Part shown: positions 1-9,299 of the stretch, in pieces
Position numbering within the stretch: the first letter of the stretch is position 1
Layout: the number at the start of each line of letters is the position of its first letter
Assembly: GCA_037915955.1 (NCBI GenBank)
Contig: JBAIYI010000094.1
Span: 1 to 25,755, forward strand
DNA length: 25,755 nt
Origin: Terriglobales bacterium
Lineage (GTDB): Bacteria; Acidobacteriota; Terriglobia; Terriglobales; Acidobacteriaceae
Reading direction: 5' to 3'
Position numbers and translations under genes: made by a program
The notes under the pieces: model-generated
What the model was told of the DNA's origin: nothing
What the model saw: only the letters and a program-made list of their open reading frames with translations
Database searches by the model: none

Positions 1-1
1 A

Positions 2-280
2 GAACATTATGAGTCCGACCAGAAAGTCGTAGCCATCCTGCCCGATCGGGGTGACCGGTATTACGCCAACATCTACTCGCCCGACTTTATGCGCGAGAAG
101 AACCTGGTGGATGAAGTTGCCGCGGCATTTCCCAATCCGATTCGTTACGGCGTCGATGTAGCCCAGCGCTGGAGCTACGCGCCGATCCCGCACGAACGCC
201 CGACTGATTACACCGGCGACGTAAGCACGACTGAAGAATTCGCCCGCGATCTTGGACTGGAGGCAGTGCAGGTGTCATGA
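2..280 (+). CDS. 3' end of a PLP-dependent cysteine synthase/SbnA-like (fold type II) enzyme, truncated by the window edge
   Basis: Frame +2 is open from base 2: EHYESDQKVVAILPDRGDRYYANIYSPDF... The VVAILPDRGDRY segment is the typical C-terminal motif of cysteine-synthase-family enzymes. The stop overlaps the next start (ATGA, 277-280). The ORF track's 89..280 is only the tail. Confidence 0.8.
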   Translation, partial: EHYESDQKVVAILPDRGDRYYANIYSPDFMREKNLVDEVAAAFPNPIRYGVDVAQRWSYAPIPHERPTDYTGDVSTTEEFARDLGLEAVQVS

Positions 281-1542
281 GTCACTATCTGTTGATCGAA
301 AGCAACACCACGGGAACGGGCGGAATGATGGTTGACATGCTTCTCTCACGGGGAGACGCGGTCACCTTTCTGACCCGGACACCGGCGAAATACCCGTTCC
401 TCGGATATCGTCATCCGGAGCTTCAGGTGAGGGAAGTGGACACCAACAGCTTTGGAGTTGTGATAGAAGCTGTGCAGGCTATTCATGCGACGAAGAAGCT
501 TCATGCGGTTACGACATCCTCAGAGTTTTATGTTCCCTTGGTCGCTCAGCTGGCTGCCGCATTGGGCGTAAATGGGCTCGATCCTGCCGCTGCCAGGACC
601 TGCCGTCACAAGCCGAGCACGCGCCAGGCACTGAAAGCGGCCGGGTTGGTTACGCCGGATTTCTACCTGGTGAACTCGGAAGAAGAAGTGCGGCGCCTGG
701 CCGCGCAGATCGAATACCCATGCGTGGTGAAACCACCCTCTGACAGTTCCAGCCACGGTGTTCGCCTGGTGAATGATGCCCGCGACTTGGTGGAGCACTA
801 CCTCGAGATACATAACTGGAAGGAAAACGTGCGTGGGCAAACGCTGGATGGAAGCGTACTGGTAGAGAGCCTGCTGGAAGGTCCCGAGTACAGCGTGGAA
901 ACCATTACGTTGGCCGGTGGTGAAACGCACGTGATCGGGGTGACTGACAAACATCTCTCGCAGGAGCCCTGGTTCGTGGAATTGGGTCACGATTTTCCCA
1001 GCCGCGCTTCCGCGGAGGTACAGGCGGCGCTGAAACAGGCGGCTGTCCTCGGGCTGAAAGCCGTCAATTTCAACTTCGGTCCGGCGCACACGGAAATCCG
1101 CTGGACGCAGCACGGCGCAGCGATCGTGGAAATCAATCCTCGTCTAGCCGGGGGTATGATCCCTGAACTCGTGGCCTACGCCACCGGGATTGACCTGCTG
1201 CAGACCTGGATGGACATGCTGGTCGGCCGCAAGTTGAACCTCGATCCTACCGAAAAAGACAACGCCTCGATCCGGTTCATCACCTCGGACCGGATCGGGA
1301 CACTGCGCCAGGTAAAAGGACTGCATGAAGCGAGCGTGATCCCGAGCATACGCGATATAGCCGTCACGGCCAAACCGGGGCGCGCAATCAGGCCCGCCGA
1401 AGACGCTTATGACCGGCTCGGCTATGTCATTGGCGCCGGCGAGGACCCGGTGGTGGTGTCACGCCACCTGCAGGAAGCCCTGGAAACCATTCAACTCGAA
1501 CTCGAACCGCAGGAATGTGCGGTTCACGCAAGTCAGGGATGA
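277..1542 (+). CDS. ATP-grasp enzyme (amino acid ligase-like), 421 aa
   Basis: ATP-grasp motifs YPCVVKP, VLVESLLEGPEYSVE, GPAHTEIR and IVEINPRLAGG. Translationally coupled to the upstream PLP enzyme. Confidence 0.9.
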   Translation: MSHYLLIESNTTGTGGMMVDMLLSRGDAVTFLTRTPAKYPFLGYRHPELQVREVDTNSFGVVIEAVQAIHATKKLHAVTTSSEFYVPLVAQLAAALGVNGLDPAAARTCRHKPSTRQALKAAGLVTPDFYLVNSEEEVRRLAAQIEYPCVVKPPSDSSSHGVRLVNDARDLVEHYLEIHNWKENVRGQTLDGSVLVESLLEGPEYSVETITLAGGETHVIGVTDKHLSQEPWFVELGHDFPSRASAEVQAALKQAAVLGLKAVNFNFGPAHTEIRWTQHGAAIVEINPRLAGGMIPELVAYATGIDLLQTWMDMLVGRKLNLDPTEKDNASIRFITSDRIGTLRQVKGLHEASVIPSIRDIAVTAKPGRAIRPAEDAYDRLGYVIGAGEDPVVVSRHLQEALETIQLELEPQECAVHASQG

Positions 1543-1545
1543 CTT

Positions 1546-2658
1546 ATGAAGAGCTTGATCGATCTACGCAGCGATACCGTGACCTTACCTCCGCTGGACA
1601 TGCGCAAAGCAATTGCTCGCGCGCAGCTCGGCGATGACGTTTACGGTGAAGATCCCACGGTCAGTGAACTGGAAAAGCTGGTCTCTAAAACTCTGGGTAA
1701 GGAAGCCGCTCTTCTCACACCAAGCGGGACCATGGCGAACCTGCTCGCGCTCCTGGCTCATTGCGGCCAACGGAAGCGGCTACTGGTTGGCGATCTTTCC
1801 GATATCTGGAAATGGGAGGCAGGCGGCGCCTCACAACTGGGCGGATTGGTCTATGAGCCTTTGCCCACCCTGGCGAGTGGTGAGATTCCTCTCGAAGCCC
1901 TGGAAGCGGCGCTCTATGGTGAGCAGGACTTTCAATGCGTTCCGGCGGGGGCCATTTGCCTGGAGAACACGCATTGTCTGTGCGGCGGGAAGGTGCTGTC
2001 GCTCGAATACCTGTCACAGGTATATGAGTTCTCCCGGCGACGGTCACTTCCCGTCCACATGGATGGAGCCCGGCTGTTCAACGCAGCCATAGCGATGGGA
2101 ATCGATGTTCGGCACATCGCGAGTTTTGCAGACTCAATCACCATTTGTCTCTCCAAAGGACTGGCGGCGCCTGTAGGCTCCGTGCTGGCGGGAAGTGGAG
2201 CGTTCATCAGCAGCGCTCGCCGGCTGCGCAAGATGCTGGGAGGTGGAATGCGTCAGGCCGGTATTGTGGCCGCCGGTGGAGTGTATGCACTGCAGCACAT
2301 GATCGACCGGCTAAGTGAAGACCACGCGAATGCGCGTTTGCTGGCGCAAGGTCTGGCGGAAATTTCGGGCATACAGGTCAGCCGCGAAGCTCCGCCGACA
2401 AACATCGTCTTCTTCAGCCTCAGCGATCCTGAACTCAGCCTCAAGTATTTTCTTTATGCCCTGGAGAACGAAGGTGTGCGAGTGGCTGAACTTGGAAAGG
2501 GAAGAATCCGAGCCGTCACGCATTATGGCATCAGCCAGGACGATATTGCCTACGTCATGGTGGCTGTCAACCGTGCACTCGAGCGGACCCGGGCGGCAAG
2601 TTCACCGGTCGTCGTAACAGATCAGCAGTTATGGACTGAGGATGCCGTTGCACTGTAG
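1546..2658 (+). CDS. ltaE: Low-specificity L-threonine aldolase (PLP-dependent), 370 aa
   Basis: Motifs DLRSDTVT, GDDVYGEDPTV, SGTMANL, HMDGARLFNAA and CLSKGLAAPVGS (PLP lysine). Confidence 0.93.
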   Translation: MKSLIDLRSDTVTLPPLDMRKAIARAQLGDDVYGEDPTVSELEKLVSKTLGKEAALLTPSGTMANLLALLAHCGQRKRLLVGDLSDIWKWEAGGASQLGGLVYEPLPTLASGEIPLEALEAALYGEQDFQCVPAGAICLENTHCLCGGKVLSLEYLSQVYEFSRRRSLPVHMDGARLFNAAIAMGIDVRHIASFADSITICLSKGLAAPVGSVLAGSGAFISSARRLRKMLGGGMRQAGIVAAGGVYALQHMIDRLSEDHANARLLAQGLAEISGIQVSREAPPTNIVFFSLSDPELSLKYFLYALENEGVRVAELGKGRIRAVTHYGISQDDIAYVMVAVNRALERTRAASSPVVVTDQQLWTEDAVAL

Positions 2659-2718
2659 CTGATTTTCCTCGTCGATCGACTCAAGGGTTACCTGAAGCGC
2701 AGAAAAAGGAGTCCCCTC

Positions 2719-4089
2719 GTGGCAGAAACTCGCGTGATGAATCGAAACTTCATGTTCCTGTGGCAGGGCCAGATCGTCAGCCAGGTGGGAACGCAGCTCT
2801 TTCAGGTGATCGTCATCCTATCCCTTAAGCAAGCCACGCAGTCGGCGACTTTGGTTGGGCTGTTCATGATGGCCGCAACTGTGCCCGCTCTCTTGCTGGG
2901 CCCGCTGGGCGGCGCCGTGGTGGACCGCTACTCACGCAAGTCAGTCCTGGTGACGGGAGATTTGATCCGCGGGGTGGCGCTCACGGGTTTGGCTGCGGCT
3001 CTCTGGCTCGGCTCGCACTCGCTGACAATCGTGGTTGGATCGCTGTTCGTTTATTCGCTGCTTGAAGGCAGCGTTGGCGCGGTGTGGCAGCCGGCGAGTA
3101 TTTCCGTTGTGCCTGATCTGGTGCCGAAAGAAGGTGTGGGAACGGCGAACTCTTTCATCCAAGGTTCCTTTCAACTCTGTACGGTGCTGGGGCAGGTGAT
3201 CGCCGGAATACTGTTTCGCCTGGTGGGTGCGCCGCTGCTGATGCTGGTGGATGCTGCGACCTACTTCTATGCCGCTGTGAGCGATGCCTTCATTCGCATC
3301 CCCGCGGCCACAGCGAAAGCTTCAGACGAGACTCCGAAGGCAAAGAGTTTTAAAGCGGAGATCGTGGAAGGCCTGCGGCACATCCACACCCGTCCGGGGA
3401 TGCGGATGCTCTTCTACACCATGGCGTTCTTCCAGCTTGTCATGGTGCCAATGCTCATCCTCTTTCCCTTTTATGTAGAGGACTTTCTGCGAGCCGGGCC
3501 ACAGTGGTACGGCTTCCTGCTGGCAGCATCCGGGTTGGGAACCTTCGTTGGATACGGACTGGGAGGCGCACTCAAGCTGTCGCCGCGCAACTCCAGCAGC
3601 GTAACAGTATCCGTAATGGTTCTCATGTCGTTGTGCCTGACTGCACTGGCTTTTGCCAAAGGACCATGGATTGCCCTGGTGCTGATCGCAGCCGTTGGAG
3701 CCATGGACGGATTCATCGTTCTCAAGTTGTTGACAACTCTTCAACTAGCAACGCCTACGGAAATGCGTGGCCGCGTATTCGGACTGCTCATGACGATCAC
3801 TCGAGGACTTACTCCTGTCGCCATGGGGCTCACGGGAGTGATCGCTGACATGATGCATCGCAACATTCCGCTGATCTATGGCGTTTGCGGCGCGGTAGCC
3901 ACGCTGCTGGCGAGCAATGTGGCCGTCCGCGGTGAATGCCGAGCGTTTCTGGCGGGCGAAGACGCCACCGACCATGGCTCCGCTCCCACTCCGATTCAAA
4001 GCAAAGCTCCGGCTATGCTGGAAGCCCCAGACGCCGCTATGAACGCGCCTCTTCTCTGCCAGTTTGATTCCCTGCAGGAGATCAAATGA
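2719..4089 (+). CDS. MFS transporter, DHA3/macrolide-efflux-like, 456 aa
   Basis: About 12 hydrophobic segments; N-terminal NFMFLWQGQIVSQVG; motif A-like GGAVVDRYSRKSVLVTGDLIRG; AAGGAG RBS 8 nt before the GTG; stop overlaps the NRPS start (ATGA). Confidence 0.92.
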   Translation: MAETRVMNRNFMFLWQGQIVSQVGTQLFQVIVILSLKQATQSATLVGLFMMAATVPALLLGPLGGAVVDRYSRKSVLVTGDLIRGVALTGLAAALWLGSHSLTIVVGSLFVYSLLEGSVGAVWQPASISVVPDLVPKEGVGTANSFIQGSFQLCTVLGQVIAGILFRLVGAPLLMLVDAATYFYAAVSDAFIRIPAATAKASDETPKAKSFKAEIVEGLRHIHTRPGMRMLFYTMAFFQLVMVPMLILFPFYVEDFLRAGPQWYGFLLAASGLGTFVGYGLGGALKLSPRNSSSVTVSVMVLMSLCLTALAFAKGPWIALVLIAAVGAMDGFIVLKLLTTLQLATPTEMRGRVFGLLMTITRGLTPVAMGLTGVIADMMHRNIPLIYGVCGAVATLLASNVAVRGECRAFLAGEDATDHGSAPTPIQSKAPAMLEAPDAAMNAPLLCQFDSLQEIK

Positions 4090-7000
4090 GCTCGTCAGCG
4101 CAACACCAGCCGGAGCCGGTACCATCTGGCGAACCCGGCACTCGAGAGCTTTACCCGCTCTCCATGAACCAGCGTGACATGTGGTTCCAAAGCCAGATTC
4201 ATTCTGAAGAAGGGCTCAACAATGTCTGTGTCCAGGTCACGATGGACGGCAAGCTGGATGTGGAGTGCTTCCGTGGTGCATGGCAGGCGGTGGTCAACCG
4301 TCACAGTGCCTTGCGCACTGTGTTCATCGAACGTGATGGGGTGCCCTACCAGAAAGTCCTGCCGGAGGCAGAAGTATATTTCTCCATCGTAGATCTTTCG
4401 GCCGAGGCTCCCGACGAACAGGCAAAGAGCTTGAAGGAGCTGGAACATCAATTTGCCGCGAAGGGGTTTGACTTTGAACGTGGACCGCTATTTCGTTTTT
4501 GCCTGGCGAGGATAGCTGACCAACAGCACGTTTTTCTGTTTACCTTCAGTCACCTGATCATCGACGGCATCTACATGTCGGAAATCTTCGATCAGGTAAG
4601 CGCGTCCTATGAGTCCCTTGCACACGGCAACGATGGGAAGCTGACATGGCTGGATTTGCAATATCCCGAATTTGCCGCAAGACAAATCGAGCGCCTTGAA
4701 AACGGTCTACTGGCGGAGCACGAAAAGTATTGGCACGAACAGCTCCATGCCGCGCTGCCCGCGATGGAACTTCCGACTGATCGCGCGTCACGCAAGACCA
4801 CGAGTTTTGAACTGGGTGTCCTTGATGTGGACGTTCCGGAGTCAGTTTTTGCAAAGCTGAAAAGTTTCCGGAAGCGCTACCGCACAACCGTATTTCGCAC
4901 TGTTCTCGCGGCGTTTGAAGTCCTGCTCCAGCAACTGACGGGAGAAAATGACCTGCTCCTCGGCGTTCCTTTCACAACGCTGCCTAAACATGCGCCGGAA
5001 CTGCTGGGCTTCTTCGGCCACATGGTGCCGGTGCGGGCAAGCCTGGACGGCGCGACGCGATTTACCGATTTGTTGTCGGAAGTGAACCGGCAAATGAACA
5101 ATGCGCAGGAACACCTTGAGTATCCATTGTTTGAAGCTGTGCGTGGGCTCAGGATTATTCGCGATCCTCACCGTCCGCTCTTTCCCGTGGTGATCTCCCA
5201 GGTGCGCGCGCTGGAGAGCACGATGGACGGCGTGCGCCTCAATATGGTGTCAAGGTTCGTGCAGGGCGGTGTTTACCATCTGTGGCTCACGGTACGCGAG
5301 CTGAAGGATGGCCTCTCACTCGGTTTCTATTACAACCGGCAGCTTCTTGAAGGCAGGCCTCTGCAGCTGATTGTCGATTGCATGCAGCAGATGCTTGCCC
5401 GTGTCGTGGAGAATCCGGATGCACCGCTCAGCCTGCTCGAAGTAGTGTCGGCTGCCGAGCGCGAGAGAGTACTCCGTTTCGGTAATGGCGGCCCAGCGCA
5501 GGAGAGCGGTCTCTGGCTTGAACAGATGTTGGCGAAACACGCATCGCAGCAGCCGACGGCAATTGCGGCGTCGGATGGTAACGGCGCAGTTACTTACCGG
5601 GAGCTCAATGAGCGAGCCAACCGGCTGGCGAATTGGCTCATAGCGGGTGGAACGCGCAAGGGCGATCGAATCGGCATCATGGGGCAACGCAGTGTGGGGA
5701 TGCTCACGACCATCCTTGCAGTCCTTAAGGCTGGAGCCGCTTATGTGCCTCTCGATCCCAAGGATCCGCCGGAGCGGATTCTCGGGATGATTAAAGATGC
5801 CGGCTTGAAATGGCTCTCAGTGGATGGAGCGTTAGCAGAGTTGGGATCTCGCCTGGCCTGCACCGCCGGATGCAAGACGTTGAGTTGGAATGACGTCTCG
5901 GCGGCCGGCGTCAATAGCCCCGGGGACTGGAAAGACTCACCGTCCGTTGAACCCTCGGACGTCGACTACAGCGGACGCGATTTAGCCTACATCTTCTATA
6001 CGTCGGGTTCCACCGGTGTACCGAAAGGTGCGATGGTGGAGCGGGCCGGCATGCAAAATCACCTGCTCTCCAAGCTGTATGTGCTGCAGATGAACCCGGC
6101 AGACGTGGTGGTACAGAATGCTTCGCATTGCTTTGACATCTCTGTCTGGCAGTTCCTTGCGCCGTTGATGGCCGGCGGCCGCGTGGTGATTTATGACAAC
6201 GAGTTGGTCCTGAATCCACCAGCGTTGTTGCAAAGGGTAGCAGGCGATGGCGTCACCATTTTCGAAACAGTGCCAAGTTATCTAGAGCTCCTGATGGGAC
6301 TGGAAGGAGTGGAATCGCTGGCTGGATTGCGCTATCTGGTCTCAACGGCCGAGAGTTTGTCTGTCTCCCTGACTGACCGCTGGCTGCGGCGCTTCCCTCA
6401 TGTGCCCCTGGTCAATGCATGGGGTCCTACGGAATGCTCTGACGATGTGACACACGAAATCCTGCAGCCCGGCACAGAAGCTCTGGAAAGAGTTGGCATC
6501 GGCAAACCGATACGAGGTTCGAGAGTTTACGTTCTGGACCGCGAGCTGCGACTGCTTCCCGTAGGTTGCGTGGGTGAGATCGCCATTGGCGGCATTTGTG
6601 TTGGTCGCGGCTACATTGGTGATCCGGCAAAGACCGCGAAGACTTTCATCCCAGATCCATTTGGCCACGCACCAGGCGCTCGGCTTTATCTCACGGGAGA
6701 CATCGGGCGCTGGCGATGGGACGGCTCATTGGAATTTCTGGGCCGGCGTGATGGGCAGGTGAAGATAAGGGGCCGGCGAATCGAAATTGCCGAGATCGAA
6801 GGCGTACTTGGGGCGCATCCTTGCGTTGCTCAAGCAGCGGCCACGGTCCACGGCGGGCGGCTGGTCGCATATTGGGTGGGAAGCGACAAGGTTGAGAGCA
6901 GGGAACTCCGTAAGTTCATTGCTCATCGACTGCCGGAACACATGGTTCCTGAAGCGCTGATGAAACTGGAGAAGCTGCCACTTACCAGGACGGGCAAAGT

Positions 7001-9299
7001 AGATCGCCGGGCGTTGCCCGCACCTGACTGGAGCGAGAGTGCACGAGAATACCTGCCACCGCGCACGGAGGCCGAACAGAATATTGCTGCGATATGGCAG
7101 GAAGTGCTCGGCGTGAAAAGAATCGGGATCCACGACAACTTCTTTGAGATTGGTGGCCACTCACTGAACGCGACTCGTATCATCCTTGGCCTTCAATCGC
7201 GGTTTGGCCATGCAGTTTCGATTCGTACACTGTTCCTCAACCCTACCATTGCGGAGCTGGCATCCGCCTTGGGTGCGAGTAAAGTTGCTGTCGCCGAAAA
7301 GATACCGCTAGCTCCGGATAAAGATTGTTATTCGCTCGCACCGGCCCAGCAACCGATGTGGCTGGCATTTAATGACATTCTGCAGAGCGAATCGCCGGGC
7401 TGGGGGTTCCCGCAGATCATCCGTATTGAGGGCTCCGTTTCCCCGGACGCCCTGGCTGCCGCGCTCTCCCGTCTGGTTGAGCGGCATGACGCTTTGCGGA
7501 TCACGTTCCTTGAGCGCGACGGCGAGCCGCGGCAGCAGTTACATTCAAAGGTAGAGACCACACTACCTTTTCACGATTTTTCAGCTTTGGGCGAGCACGC
7601 CCGTGAAGAGGCCCTGCGGCGCCTGCTTGCTGATCAGCTTTCCGCGCCGCTCACGAATCGGCCACCCATGATACGGCTGCAGTTGGTGCGGCTGGCCGCC
7701 GATCTTCACTATGGGGTGATGCAGTTGCCGCACATAATTTCAGACGTGTGGACTGAACAGATTCTGGTCGAAGACCTTGCCGAGTTTTATAGCGCGATGA
7801 ACACCGGCCGATCCTCTCAGTTGCCAGAGCTACCAGCACGCTTTGTGGATTACGCGGAATGGCACACCACTCGGCTGAACTCGCAAGAGCTGATGGCGCA
7901 GAGAAATTACTGGCTTGAGCTGTTCCGCAATGCTCCCCAGCCTCTGAAACTGCAAGCGATTGGAGACAAAAACGTACGCGGAGCAGACAAGGGGGAGGCT
8001 GTTTCTCTGTCTCTCGCACTTGTCGCGAAATTGAGAGCCTTGGCGAGCGCCAACAACACTACGCTGTACACTTTGCTCCTCAGCTCCCTGCAGACGCTGC
8101 TGGCCCGGCTTACCGGGCTCACCGATGTGGTGGTTGGAACCGCGGTGAGTGGGCGCACGCATCCTGATCTGGAACGAATGGCCGGCTTCTTCATGAACCC
8201 GCTCGCTATGCGATCTGACCTGTCCGGCAATCCGAAGTTCAGCTCACTCCTGGGCCGAGTGCATCAAGGCATGTTGAGCGCGCTGGCAAACCAGGAGTAT
8301 CCCTTCCATCGCTGGCTGGAAGCTTCGCGACGGGAGAAGGGAAGTGCGGACTTCTACCCTCACTCGATTGTCTTACTCGTCGAAGAGCGCCCGCGAGACC
8401 TCTTCTTCGGCGGCGCCAGAGCGTATTTTGACTCCCTGCCCGGCTATAGCTTCGATCTTCGCCGAGTGGCGGGCCCAAACCTGGCCTTGCGCGTGTCAGA
8501 AGGCCGCGAGGGTTGGTGTGCTGAGCTTATTCCAGGAAGCCTGGATGAAGCGCCGCCCCCGGCCGGAATGTTGAGCTGGTGGTGCAGCCTGCTCCAGGAG
8601 ATCGTGGACGATCCTGGCCGTCCCATTGGTGATTACAGCCTGACGAGAAATGAAAGTCGCGATTTGGGTTCATCTCCTGAGTCGCTGGGTTGTGACGACG
8701 CTTTCACACAGTTGGCATTGAAGCTCCAGCGTTCTTCCGCAGGAACGGTTTTTGGACTCCTGACAGACGGTTCTGTGATTGAAAAGCAACCAGATCCGCT
8801 GGACCGGTTGCGAGCCCTGAGAGGCTTGCTCTCTTCCGGTCCTATCAAGGGAATTGCGGCAGATGCTGAGTTGTTGCTGGAGGCCGCGCAAAGAGAAGTA
8901 CTCACTCGTGATGTACTGCCTCAGCTGGAACGGGTGCTTGTACCCGCATCAACCCAGATTGATATTGCCCCGATTCGGCAAGCGCTGGGTATACGGGTGA
9001 GCGCGTTACTGGAACTGGATAATGTTTCTCACGCGGCGCTTTGGATAGACGATTTCGAACCGGGCAGCCCGCTGGTTGGCCGCAGTGCTGGCCCAGAGTT
9101 GGTGGTGATGGACGATTGGGGCAGCGAAACTCCTGCCGGCATCCCAGGCAGACTGTGCAGCAAGGACAAGCCATACGATGCTCCCGTAGCGCTGGGATGG
9201 AGCGCCAGGAGGCGCATGGACGGGATTCTTGAAGTCGAATCACGCCGGTTTGACACGGTTGAGTTAGACGCGGACGAACTGCAGGAACTGCTGCGGTGA
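4086..9299 (+). CDS. Non-ribosomal peptide synthetase, C-A-T-C plus degenerate C-terminal A-like remnant, no TE, 1737 aa
   Basis: C1 core SHLIIDG. A-domain motifs TYRELNERANRLA, LKAGAAYVPLD, YTSGSTGVPKG, FDISVWQ, NAWGPTE, YLTGDIG, GRRDGQVKIRGRRIE, LPEHMVP and TGKVDR. T-domain DNFFEIGGHSL. C2 core PHIISDV with GRTHPDLERMAGFFMN. No GxSxG TE motif after the T domain. Confidence 0.95.
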   Translation: MSSSAQHQPEPVPSGEPGTRELYPLSMNQRDMWFQSQIHSEEGLNNVCVQVTMDGKLDVECFRGAWQAVVNRHSALRTVFIERDGVPYQKVLPEAEVYFSIVDLSAEAPDEQAKSLKELEHQFAAKGFDFERGPLFRFCLARIADQQHVFLFTFSHLIIDGIYMSEIFDQVSASYESLAHGNDGKLTWLDLQYPEFAARQIERLENGLLAEHEKYWHEQLHAALPAMELPTDRASRKTTSFELGVLDVDVPESVFAKLKSFRKRYRTTVFRTVLAAFEVLLQQLTGENDLLLGVPFTTLPKHAPELLGFFGHMVPVRASLDGATRFTDLLSEVNRQMNNAQEHLEYPLFEAVRGLRIIRDPHRPLFPVVISQVRALESTMDGVRLNMVSRFVQGGVYHLWLTVRELKDGLSLGFYYNRQLLEGRPLQLIVDCMQQMLARVVENPDAPLSLLEVVSAAERERVLRFGNGGPAQESGLWLEQMLAKHASQQPTAIAASDGNGAVTYRELNERANRLANWLIAGGTRKGDRIGIMGQRSVGMLTTILAVLKAGAAYVPLDPKDPPERILGMIKDAGLKWLSVDGALAELGSRLACTAGCKTLSWNDVSAAGVNSPGDWKDSPSVEPSDVDYSGRDLAYIFYTSGSTGVPKGAMVERAGMQNHLLSKLYVLQMNPADVVVQNASHCFDISVWQFLAPLMAGGRVVIYDNELVLNPPALLQRVAGDGVTIFETVPSYLELLMGLEGVESLAGLRYLVSTAESLSVSLTDRWLRRFPHVPLVNAWGPTECSDDVTHEILQPGTEALERVGIGKPIRGSRVYVLDRELRLLPVGCVGEIAIGGICVGRGYIGDPAKTAKTFIPDPFGHAPGARLYLTGDIGRWRWDGSLEFLGRRDGQVKIRGRRIEIAEIEGVLGAHPCVAQAAATVHGGRLVAYWVGSDKVESRELRKFIAHRLPEHMVPEALMKLEKLPLTRTGKVDRRALPAPDWSESAREYLPPRTEAEQNIAAIWQEVLGVKRIGIHDNFFEIGGHSLNATRIILGLQSRFGHAVSIRTLFLNPTIAELASALGASKVAVAEKIPLAPDKDCYSLAPAQQPMWLAFNDILQSESPGWGFPQIIRIEGSVSPDALAAALSRLVERHDALRITFLERDGEPRQQLHSKVETTLPFHDFSALGEHAREEALRRLLADQLSAPLTNRPPMIRLQLVRLAADLHYGVMQLPHIISDVWTEQILVEDLAEFYSAMNTGRSSQLPELPARFVDYAEWHTTRLNSQELMAQRNYWLELFRNAPQPLKLQAIGDKNVRGADKGEAVSLSLALVAKLRALASANNTTLYTLLLSSLQTLLARLTGLTDVVVGTAVSGRTHPDLERMAGFFMNPLAMRSDLSGNPKFSSLLGRVHQGMLSALANQEYPFHRWLEASRREKGSADFYPHSIVLLVEERPRDLFFGGARAYFDSLPGYSFDLRRVAGPNLALRVSEGREGWCAELIPGSLDEAPPPAGMLSWWCSLLQEIVDDPGRPIGDYSLTRNESRDLGSSPESLGCDDAFTQLALKLQRSSAGTVFGLLTDGSVIEKQPDPLDRLRALRGLLSSGPIKGIAADAELLLEAAQREVLTRDVLPQLERVLVPASTQIDIAPIRQALGIRVSALLELDNVSHAALWIDDFEPGSPLVGRSAGPELVVMDDWGSETPAGIPGRLCSKDKPYDAPVALGWSARRRMDGILEVESRRFDTVELDADELQELLR

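Follow-up and report, generated by a model that had tools for sequence, protein, structure and literature searches.

Gene organization of the locus

The window, by which we mean the whole stretch of 25,755 nt analysed here, is an entire contig from an uncultured soil acidobacterium (Terriglobales). Three genes occupy positions 2–2,658 on the plus strand, and their open reading frame coordinates were confirmed. The 3′ end of an SbnA/DabB-like PLP β-replacement enzyme comes first (2–280), represented by its last 92 codons, with the 5′ part lost at the contig edge. It is followed by a free-standing ATP-grasp protein of 421 aa (277–1542), a homologue of the N-terminal half of DabC, and by a threonine-aldolase-type PLP enzyme of 370 aa (1546–2658), a PacT-type accessory gene of the cassette. 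[quoted passage not shown] The NRPS, assigned by domain matches, carries the A-domain code DIWEVTADD and is the probable consumer of a diamino acid.

The PLP and ATP-grasp genes share an ATGA overlap at 277–280, and the ATP-grasp stop codon (1540–1542) is followed by the aldolase ATG at 1546. A 60-nt spacer carrying an AAGGAG site precedes the MFS gene, and the MFS–NRPS and NRPS–DinB junctions are each 4-nt overlaps. On the plus strand we found no promoter-like sites between the operon genes and no convincing terminator, and an Rfam scan of positions 1–4500 returned no match. The three-gene cassette is translationally coupled, with the MFS exporter and the NRPS in the same operon; the description of three coupled genes leading into an NRPS operon, given in an initial annotation made from the sequence, was thus borne out in its coordinates, overlap and close spacing. 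The window being an entire contig, genes upstream of it were sought on other contigs and in relatives.

Homology of the three genes to diamino acid pathway enzymes

In the pathway described by Li et al. (2024, iScience, PMC10906522), a threonine kinase forms O-phosphothreonine, a PLP enzyme carries out β-replacement with aspartate, and a lyase then releases fumarate and 2,3-diaminobutyrate (2,3-Dab); when the kinase is absent, DabB and DabC make 2,3-diaminopropionate (Dap) from O-phosphoserine. The GHMP-family L-threonine kinase (DabA) is the marker that separates Dab from Dap operons. The N-terminal part of DabC (DabC-N) is found in some cases on its own and in others joined to the PLP enzyme (Li et al. 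2024, PMC10906522).

The ATP-grasp protein is a homologue of DabC-N. Its Pfam matches are ATP-grasp_4 (E = 2e-25) and LAL_C2 (E = 3e-19); in NCBIfam it aligns to positions 5–401 of the 890 of PRK02186 (E = 6e-97), and it scores 326 bits on the DabC-type model versus 54 bits on BacD. Identity is 38% across 399 residues to the N-half of a DabC-type ATP-grasp/lyase fusion from Burkholderia (P0232), again 38% to the pacidamycin 'diaminoacid synthase/ligase fusion protein' of Streptomyces coeruleorubidus, and 66–67% to its orthologues; the closest solved structure is the L-amino-acid ligase 3VOT. Residues K152, E273, E285, N287 and R289 do not vary among 16 aligned sequences, and across phyla there is no variation in the nucleotide- and Mg-binding residues or in an N-terminal ESNTTGTG motif specific to the family. 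With its catalytic residues intact, the protein looks catalytically competent, as judged from sequence. The published kinase/PLP/lyase scheme assigns no step to the ATP-grasp/ligase function named in the initial annotation and has none that requires an ATP-grasp enzyme (Li et al. 2024, PMC10906522). We propose tentatively that the free-standing protein performs an ATP-dependent step missing from that scheme, because of its invariant residues and motif, its fusion in various loci to each of the other three cassette enzymes (PLP, lyase and kinase) and the existence of clusters with an ATP-grasp and a PLP enzyme but without any lyase. As full-length DabC was insoluble, the split acidobacterial form offers a separate protein with which this step could be tested.

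The 92-codon PLP fragment has no match in Pfam and weak C-terminal matches to CysK, CapA and SbnA in NCBIfam (E from 1e-5 to 3e-4). It is 80% identical to residues 382–473 of a complete 473-aa orthologue in G020, which scores 161 bits on PALP, 188–205 bits on the CysK models and 261 bits on the SbnA family, its best NCBIfam match, below the equivalog cut-off of 350. The fragment also aligns to residues 289–347 of the pacidamycin PLP–ATP-grasp fusion P0179, that is, to the end of the PLP domain and the linker. Its last 92 codons and the G020 orthologue together identify the gene as a DabB-type, CysK/SbnA-like PLP enzyme. The first 381 codons were not found in the 75%-complete MAG: a search with the SbnA family yielded nothing but further PALP genes and, on contig C201, an unrelated C-terminal fragment.

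The third gene product matches Beta_elim_lyase (Pfam, E = 1e-93) and lies above the NCBIfam cut-offs of both the GntG family (439 versus 230 bits) and LtaE (319 versus 312 bits). Its nearest solved structures are the L-allo-threonine aldolases 3WGB and 1JG8 (E about 1e-88), and the SKGL lysine motif is kept. It is 80–81% identical to the G020 cassette copy and 49–81% identical to other cassette-linked copies, including 54% to that of a pacidamycin-type Streptomyces locus (L085), versus 39–42% for the housekeeping copies of the lineage, a group separated on the tree by a branch with 100/100 support. Aldolase matches occur in 38 of 41 related genomes, nearly all at about 40% identity, and G020 carries both forms, a cassette copy 80% and a housekeeping copy 41% identical to the window protein. 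The window aldolase and the housekeeping copy are separate paralogues, and the former is not the single conserved copy of the lineage. The initial annotation had named clustering with housekeeping LtaE or CysK as evidence against its reading; the aldolase stands apart from the lineage copies, and the G020 PLP orthologue scores higher on SbnA than on CysK.

In Gram-positive bacteria the distinction is lost, cassette aldolases being inseparable on the tree from an ordinary Streptomyces threonine aldolase. A cassette-specific aldolase clade was dropped, since an added non-cassette aldolase from Streptomyces cirratus falls among the cassette copies. The cassette of S. cirratus has no aldolase within 10 kb, although cirratiomycin is a (2S,3S)-DABA peptide. 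An aldolase would be expected only in operons of the pacidamycin-type, (2S,3S) variant; one follows the ATP-grasp gene directly in L085 and 19 other loci, as it does here. Operons that include an aldolase are those of (2S,3S)-Dab producers (Li et al. 2024, PMC10906522); the link between the aldolase and this isomer is only correlative.

Lyase and kinase genes outside the window

Contig C849 of the same MAG carries the A-T-TE end of an NRPS followed, with a 4-nt overlap, by a Lyase_1 protein (E = 1e-39) that runs off the contig end and is 82.6% identical to the lyase of G020. An argininosuccinate-lyase-like (ASL-like) enzyme corresponding to DabC-C is thus present in this genome, outside the window. 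The lyase gene of G020, which lies upstream in its cluster, gives matches to PRK02186 over the C-half (E = 4e-103) and to ArgH. A phylum-wide lyase search returned almost only ArgH, at 28–32% identity, and one true relative (49%, genome G217).

The gene order in three orthologous loci (G020, contig C57, locus L016; L015; L064) is NRPS-TE, ASL, GHMP kinase, PLP, ATP-grasp, aldolase, MFS and NRPS. A KS-like gene is inserted between the kinase and PLP genes in G020 and L015, and the ASL and kinase are fused in L064. In G020 the genes for all five enzymes (kinase, PLP enzyme, lyase, ATP-grasp and aldolase) are intact. In all three the GHMP kinase (GHMP_kinases_N, E = 3e-8) adjoins the lyase. From this synteny, rather than from the assembly, we infer that C849 would adjoin the window. 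A tblastn search (E ≤ 1e-3) of the 75%-complete MAG gave no match for the kinase; going by the orthologues, the kinase of this lineage's cassette would be expected in the assembly gap that separates C849 from the window. A match on contig C411 to the G020 KS-like gene (59.5%) is a probable paralogue; the other G020 cluster proteins queried have no match on C411. No SbnB-type ornithine-cyclodeaminase-like partner is present among the G020 cluster ORFs, and in G020 and G000 the genes with an ornithine cyclodeaminase (PF02423) match are found on contigs other than that of the cluster. The initial annotation had suggested that a missing lyase may lie upstream, and named a kinase among the genes to look for there: the lyase was found on C849 as well as in the orthologous loci, and the kinase in the orthologues but not in the MAG.

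Conservation of the cassette across phyla

The arrangement ASL–(kinase)–PLP–ATP-grasp–(aldolase) recurs in most members of an 80-locus set that spans Acidobacteriota, Actinomycetota, Bacillota and Myxococcota, with variation in order and completeness; in a minority, no ASL gene or no PLP gene could be detected within 10 kb. The iterative HMM survey used a PLP profile that was contaminated by fusion proteins, and 'PLP' labels on ATP-grasp ORFs were disregarded. The set includes S. cirratus and L085, whose gene row reads A-T-TE, ASL, kinase, PLP–ATP-grasp and aldolase and whose PLP–ATP-grasp fusion is 94% identical to that of S. coeruleorubidus (P0179). Four kinds of pairwise fusion occur (PLP–grasp, grasp–ASL, grasp–kinase and ASL–kinase), and the kinase and aldolase show scattered gain and loss.

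Adenylation-domain codes beside the cassette

The A-domain code of the window NRPS, re-derived by alignment, resembles those of the upstream NRPS (DIWEINTDD) and of a PacP-like gene (DIWQGTADD). Codes of the form DIW[EQ]xxxDD are present in 15 of 30 kinase-bearing loci with an A domain versus 0 of 10 kinase-less loci with an A domain, and they recur beside kinase-bearing cassettes in many taxa, including in the PacP/Pac16-like A-T-TE protein of L085. Pac16, an A-T-TE protein, activates DABA (PMC13721732).

Proposed pathway and alternative readings

The direct observations are the homologies, the conserved synteny and a lyase encoded in the same genome. We consider it probable that a split DabABC/PacQRST-type operon provides the adjoining NRPS with 2,3-Dab and that positions 2–2,658 are its downstream half. 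The chemistry would follow by analogy with Li et al. (2024, PMC10906522). A GHMP threonine kinase, its gene presumably in the assembly gap here and present in the orthologous loci, would phosphorylate L-threonine or L-allo-threonine. The SbnA/DabB-like PLP enzyme would eliminate the phosphate and add the amine of L-aspartate, giving N-(1-amino-1-carboxypropan-2-yl)-aspartate, from which the ASL-like enzyme of C849 would split off fumarate to leave 2,3-Dab. The aldolase most likely interconverts threonine and allo-threonine via glycine and acetaldehyde; in known clusters it accompanies the (2S,3S) isomer, which would then be the expected stereochemistry. The ATP-grasp protein, a free-standing DabC N-domain, is predicted to be catalytically competent. 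A domains with DIWE..DD pockets would activate 2,3-Dab, and the peptide would exit through the MFS pump.

The same enzymes could instead make L-2,3-diaminopropionate from O-phosphoserine, a primary metabolite, and aspartate, with no threonine kinase involved, as DabB and DabC can (Li et al. 2024, PMC10906522). Consistent with this, the kinase gene was not found in this MAG, and on the ATP-grasp tree most of the closest outgroups are ASL–PLP–grasp cassettes without a detected kinase. We regard a Dap product as unlikely: the kinase sits beside the lyase in three of three orthologous loci, the MAG is 75% complete with the expected kinase position falling in the C849–window gap, and a route starting from serine offers no obvious role for the threonine/allo-threonine aldolase of the operon. 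The presence of the kinase in the orthologues favours 2,3-Dab over Dap, narrowing the initial proposal of either product. It is likewise improbable that the window NRPS activates 2,4-diaminobutyrate, with the cassette product consumed by the upstream synthetase alone or elsewhere. Such a reading takes its strength from the PvdL A domain (PDB 9LCP/9UP2), which we take to be a 2,4-Dab module: its code DIWELTADD is identical to DIWEVTADD at eight of nine positions, so the code alone cannot separate 2,3-Dab from 2,4-Dab. A text search for DIWELTADDK gave no match. Against it stands the company kept by these codes in many taxa, beside kinase-bearing cassettes and in the PacP/Pac16-like A-T-TE protein that loads 2,3-DABA; in addition, a weak test, the search for the 2,4-Dab aminotransferase (TIGR00709), gave nothing above the cut-off in four cluster-carrying genomes (best 294 versus 401.6 bits) and no reported match on the G020 cluster contig.

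A reading in which the three genes have nothing to do with one another, being housekeeping or tailoring enzymes (a cysteine synthase, a dipeptide-making L-amino-acid ligase and LtaE) that merely precede an NRPS, would accord with the L-amino-acid ligases closest in structure to the ATP-grasp protein, with the aldolase passing the LtaE equivalog cut-off and with the mixing of Gram-positive cassette and ordinary Streptomyces aldolases. We consider this very improbable, given the strong preference of the ATP-grasp protein for the DabC-type model over BacD, the higher score of the PLP orthologue on SbnA than on CysK, the separate aldolase that relatives keep at about 40% identity and a gene order conserved, with lyase and kinase, across phyla. 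The supply of a 2,3-diamino acid by a friulimicin/pacidamycin-type cassette, as first proposed, is supported by the lyase on C849, the gene order of the orthologous loci, the ATP-grasp homology and the separateness of the aldolase from the housekeeping copy.

The 2,3-Dab operon proposed here is an ordinary new copy of a known pathway type whose chemistry was published in 2024, not a new kind of system. It carries that pathway into Acidobacteriota, with its five genes fully split. One building block of the uncharacterised Candidatus Angelobacter-type NRPS product would be a 2,3-diamino acid (probably 2,3-Dab), perhaps incorporated twice, an assignment that aids structure prediction and genome mining. 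The comparative set, with its 80 loci, four fusion kinds and gain and loss of kinase and aldolase, sharpens the questions on the roles of the ATP-grasp and aldolase proteins.

Comparison with known systems

A close counterpart in gene families is DabABC of Burkholderia thailandensis E264, which makes (2S,3R)-2,3-diaminobutyrate with a GHMP threonine kinase, a CysK/SbnA-like PLP enzyme, an ATP-grasp and an ASL-like enzyme (PMC10906522). As in that system, the cassette here would supply an NRPS. Whereas DabC is a single protein of 890–900 aa, the ATP-grasp and lyase are here encoded by separate genes several kilobases apart; an aldolase is added, a KS-like gene is inserted in two of the relatives, the host is acidobacterial and the product is not a monobactam.

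PacQRST and Pac17–20 are gene names for the pacidamycin, napsamycin and mureidomycin cassettes making (2S,3S)-DABA. These share the gene content of the acidobacterial cassette as seen in the orthologous loci, including a threonine aldolase directly after the ATP-grasp, as well as an A domain with a DIWxxTADD pocket beside it. In Streptomyces PacQRST, however, the PLP and ATP-grasp enzymes form one fusion of about 755 aa, whereas here they are two genes with the ATGA overlap exactly at the domain boundary, and the downstream line is a conventional multidomain NRPS, unlike the dissociated uridyl-peptide machinery of pacidamycin. With the SbnA/SbnB route to 2,3-diaminopropionate (also SulH/SulG and CmnB/CmnK), the cassette would share a PLP-dependent β-replacement in which an O-phospho amino acid is the substrate and another amino acid donates the nitrogen; its partner enzyme is a fumarate-releasing lyase rather than the NAD-dependent, ornithine-cyclodeaminase-like SbnB.

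Gene order and the missing upstream half

The window, a complete contig (C4, 25,755 bp) of a 918-contig, 75%-complete metagenome-assembled genome (MAG), opens inside a gene for a PLP enzyme. The 3′ end of this gene (92 residues, 2–280, + strand) overlaps by ATGA the gene for a 421-residue ATP-grasp protein (277–1542, +), and a 370-residue PLP-dependent aldolase (1546–2658, +) starts three bases past the ATP-grasp stop. The MFS transporter gene that follows (2719–4089, +) is preceded by a 60-nt spacer containing an AAGGAG site; after it come an NRPS gene (4086–9299, +) and a DinB-family gene (+), each overlapping its predecessor by 4 nt. On the + strand, neither a promoter-like site nor a convincing terminator separates these genes, and no Rfam family matched within 1–4500. 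Coordinates, overlaps and the lack of a separating promoter or terminator thus bear out the initial annotation of three coupled genes leading into an NRPS operon. Its broader proposal, a 2,3-diamino acid supply cassette for the NRPS, is probably right in substance, with the lyase and kinase found as described below.

Because the window starts inside the PLP gene with nothing upstream, we examined the same genome and its relatives. The best relative, G020:C57 (public contig JAIQGL010000018, ‘Terriglobia bacterium S3’), has an ATP-grasp protein 66% identical to that of the window. Its cluster encodes, in order, an MbtH-like protein; a free-standing C domain; a 2452-aa NRPS ending in A-T-TE (L014:9048–16406); an argininosuccinate-lyase-like protein of 559 aa, matching PRK02186 positions 408–887 of 890 (E = 4e-103) and also ArgH; a 328-aa GHMP kinase; a patatin, on the strand opposite to the cluster; a 423-aa FabF-like KS (L014:3300–4571); a 473-aa PALP enzyme; and then ATP-grasp, aldolase, MFS, an 1802-aa NRPS and DinB. 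Among NCBIfam models the PALP enzyme matches the SbnA family best, scoring 261 bits: more than with any CysK model, but short of the 350-bit equivalog cut-off. The window fragment is 80% identical to residues 382–473 of this enzyme; its first ~37 residues match the C-termini of the CysK, CapA and SbnA models weakly (E 1e-5 to 3e-4). The FabF-like KS, whose match to the ketoacyl-synt N-terminal domain is partial, lies between kinase and PLP gene in G020 and in a second orthologous locus, L015, and is absent from a third, L064.

Two further contigs of the window’s MAG carry the orthologue of this upstream NRPS: C769 its first 1866 residues and C849 its end (A-T-TE, 76% identical). On C849 the NRPS end overlaps by 4 nt the gene for a Lyase_1 protein that shares 82.6% identity with the G020 lyase and is cut by the contig end. 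The lyase predicted to lie upstream of the window was therefore found in the same MAG, its linkage to the window being inferred from synteny; an upstream kinase, also raised initially, stands beside the lyase in G020. Missing from the assembled contigs of the MAG are the kinase, the remainder of the lyase and PLP codons 1–381; by synteny they would fall in a gap of ~3–8 kb between reverse-complemented C849 and the window.

The ATP-grasp protein and the aldolase

The window ATP-grasp protein scores 326 bits against the N-terminal half of PRK02186, versus 99 bits for the next model and 54 bits for BacD, which places it in the family of the ATP-grasp half of DabC (DabC-N), not among L-amino-acid ligases in general; its closest solved structures are L-amino-acid ligases (3VOT, E = 3e-28). 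Across 16 diverse family members, the ATP-binding lysine K152 (VVKP), the hinge glutamates, E273, the Mg/catalytic motif E285-x-N287-x-R289 and an N-terminal ESNTTGTG motif are invariant, and these canonical features suggest a working enzyme rather than a scaffold. In a tree of 83 family members it groups with L015, L016 (the G020 locus) and L064 (SH-aLRT 99), nested in a clade drawn mainly from acidobacteria and myxobacteria, most of the remaining members of which have no detectable kinase and aldolase. Presence of the aldolase changes at least 13 times on this tree, and this scattered occurrence argues for kinase and aldolase being modular additions to a lyase–PLP–ATP-grasp core.

The window aldolase exceeds both the GntG-family and LtaE cut-offs, keeps the PLP-lysine motif and has its closest solved structures in two L-allo-threonine aldolases, 3WGB and 1JG8 (E ~1e-88). 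Matches occur in 38 of 41 related genomes, nearly all at ~40% identity; G020 has both a ~40% copy and a cassette copy at 80%. A branch with 100/100 support separates acidobacterial housekeeping copies from all cassette-linked ones, and the acidobacterial cassette aldolases form their own clade (99/96). With the rows of three genomes flagged as unpublished (G029, G038 and G040) removed, the picture is the same and none of the conclusions depends on unpublished genomes, the window aldolase being 39–42% identical to housekeeping and 49–81% to cassette copies. We dropped the idea that cassette aldolases are a specialised subfamily, because a non-cassette Streptomyces cirratus aldolase, adjoining a glycosyl hydrolase, groups among the Gram-positive cassette copies; its placement points to recruited ordinary threonine aldolases.

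Spread and fusions of the cassette

Scanning species-representative genomes with two ATP-grasp family motifs matched more than 600 stretches, 555 of which encode relatives; the best 80 loci were examined with tblastn and locally built HMMs. Most of these 80 keep the order lyase–(kinase)–PLP–ATP-grasp–(aldolase), with gaps and some reordering, across Acidobacteriota, Actinomycetota, Bacillota, Myxococcota and a few others. One of the compared loci, L057, is from S. cirratus, the producer of cirratiomycin. Four kinds of fusion occur: PLP–ATP-grasp in most actinomycetes, ATP-grasp–lyase in Burkholderia P0232 and in L091, ATP-grasp–kinase (P0125/L034) and lyase–kinase (L064).

Four Streptomyces loci (L055, L070, L076 and L092) have an MbtH-like gene and then a PLP–ATP-grasp fusion gene, with neither lyase nor kinase detected within 10 kb, a hint that the PLP/ATP-grasp pair can dispense with the fumarate-releasing step. 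The Dab-type lyase is uncommon: in an even draw of 300 Acidobacteriota genomes it turned up, apart from the window’s genome, in G217 alone (49% identity), the remaining matches being ArgH at 28–32%. A different cluster in a same-genus genome (L112; G008:C108:50000–68000, minus strand) encodes a class IV aminotransferase, thioesterase, methyltransferase, flavin reductase, threonine-aldolase-like protein (51% identical to the window’s), Na/H exchanger, LAL-type ATP-grasp (32%), CmlA-like diiron beta-hydroxylase and ASL-like lyase. It thus joins ATP-grasp, lyase and aldolase, and no CysK-like PLP gene is among its annotated ORFs.

Probable link to the NRPS

The re-derived A-domain pocket of the window NRPS is D-I-W-E-V-T-A-D-D. 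The upstream NRPS A domain, directly before the lyase in G020 and L015, reads DIWEINTDD, and L064 reads DIWELTADD; in the window’s own MAG the part corresponding to this upstream A domain, divided between C769 and C849, yielded no code. Tallied by hand from A-domain matches within 10 kb of cassettes, DIW[EQ]xxxDD codes occur in 15 of 30 kinase-bearing versus 0 of 10 kinase-less loci holding an A domain, a pattern rather than a statistic, since the loci are mutually related. A PvdL A domain in the PDB, which we take to be the 2,4-Dab module, has the code DIWELTADD, so the code would mark small diamino acids in general. A weak test for 2,4-Dab supply, a search for its aminotransferase above the family cut-off, found none in the four cluster-carrying genomes.

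The G020 upstream NRPS has three condensation-type stretches and two carrier domains, with a single A domain ahead of the TE. From this domain content and the DIWEINTDD code, one module seems to be without an A domain and the peptide may hold two diamino-acid residues.

Comparison with known systems

The pathway type has been published since 2024, and the window carries a further copy. In the dabABC operon of B. thailandensis studied by Li et al., DabA is an L-threonine kinase by genetics and sequence motifs, an in vitro assay not having been possible; DabB, in vitro, exchanges the phosphate group of O-phosphothreonine for the L-aspartate amine; and DabC, an N-terminal ATP-grasp domain joined to a C-terminal argininosuccinate-lyase domain, converted the synthetic adduct fed in vivo to fumarate and (2S,3R)-Dab (PMC10906522). 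DabC could not be purified, and the published scheme gives its ATP-grasp half no role; elsewhere DabC-N stands alone as its own protein or is joined to the PLP enzyme (PMC10906522). When the kinase is absent, DabB and DabC turn O-phosphoserine into Dap, and operons with an aldolase are those of (2S,3S)-DABA producers: pacidamycin, napsamycin and mureidomycin (PMC10906522). For the window’s cassette, 2,3-Dab rather than Dap is the most likely product, possibly as the (2S,3S) isomer.

The pacidamycin-type system offers a close counterpart. A Streptomyces viridochromogenes locus (L085), with the gene row A-T-TE, lyase, kinase, PLP–ATP-grasp and aldolase, encodes a fusion 94% identical to one from S. 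coeruleorubidus, which makes pacidamycin; UniRef names the latter ‘diaminoacid synthase/ligase fusion protein’. The PacP/Pac16-like protein of L085 (DIWQGTADD) is counted among the 15 DIW[EQ]xxxDD cases above, and Pac16, an A-T-TE protein, activates DABA in pacidamycin assembly (PMC13721732). Aligned with the pacidamycin fusion, the 92-residue window fragment covers the last part of the PLP domain plus the linker, and the split into two genes in the window falls exactly at the domain boundary of that fusion.
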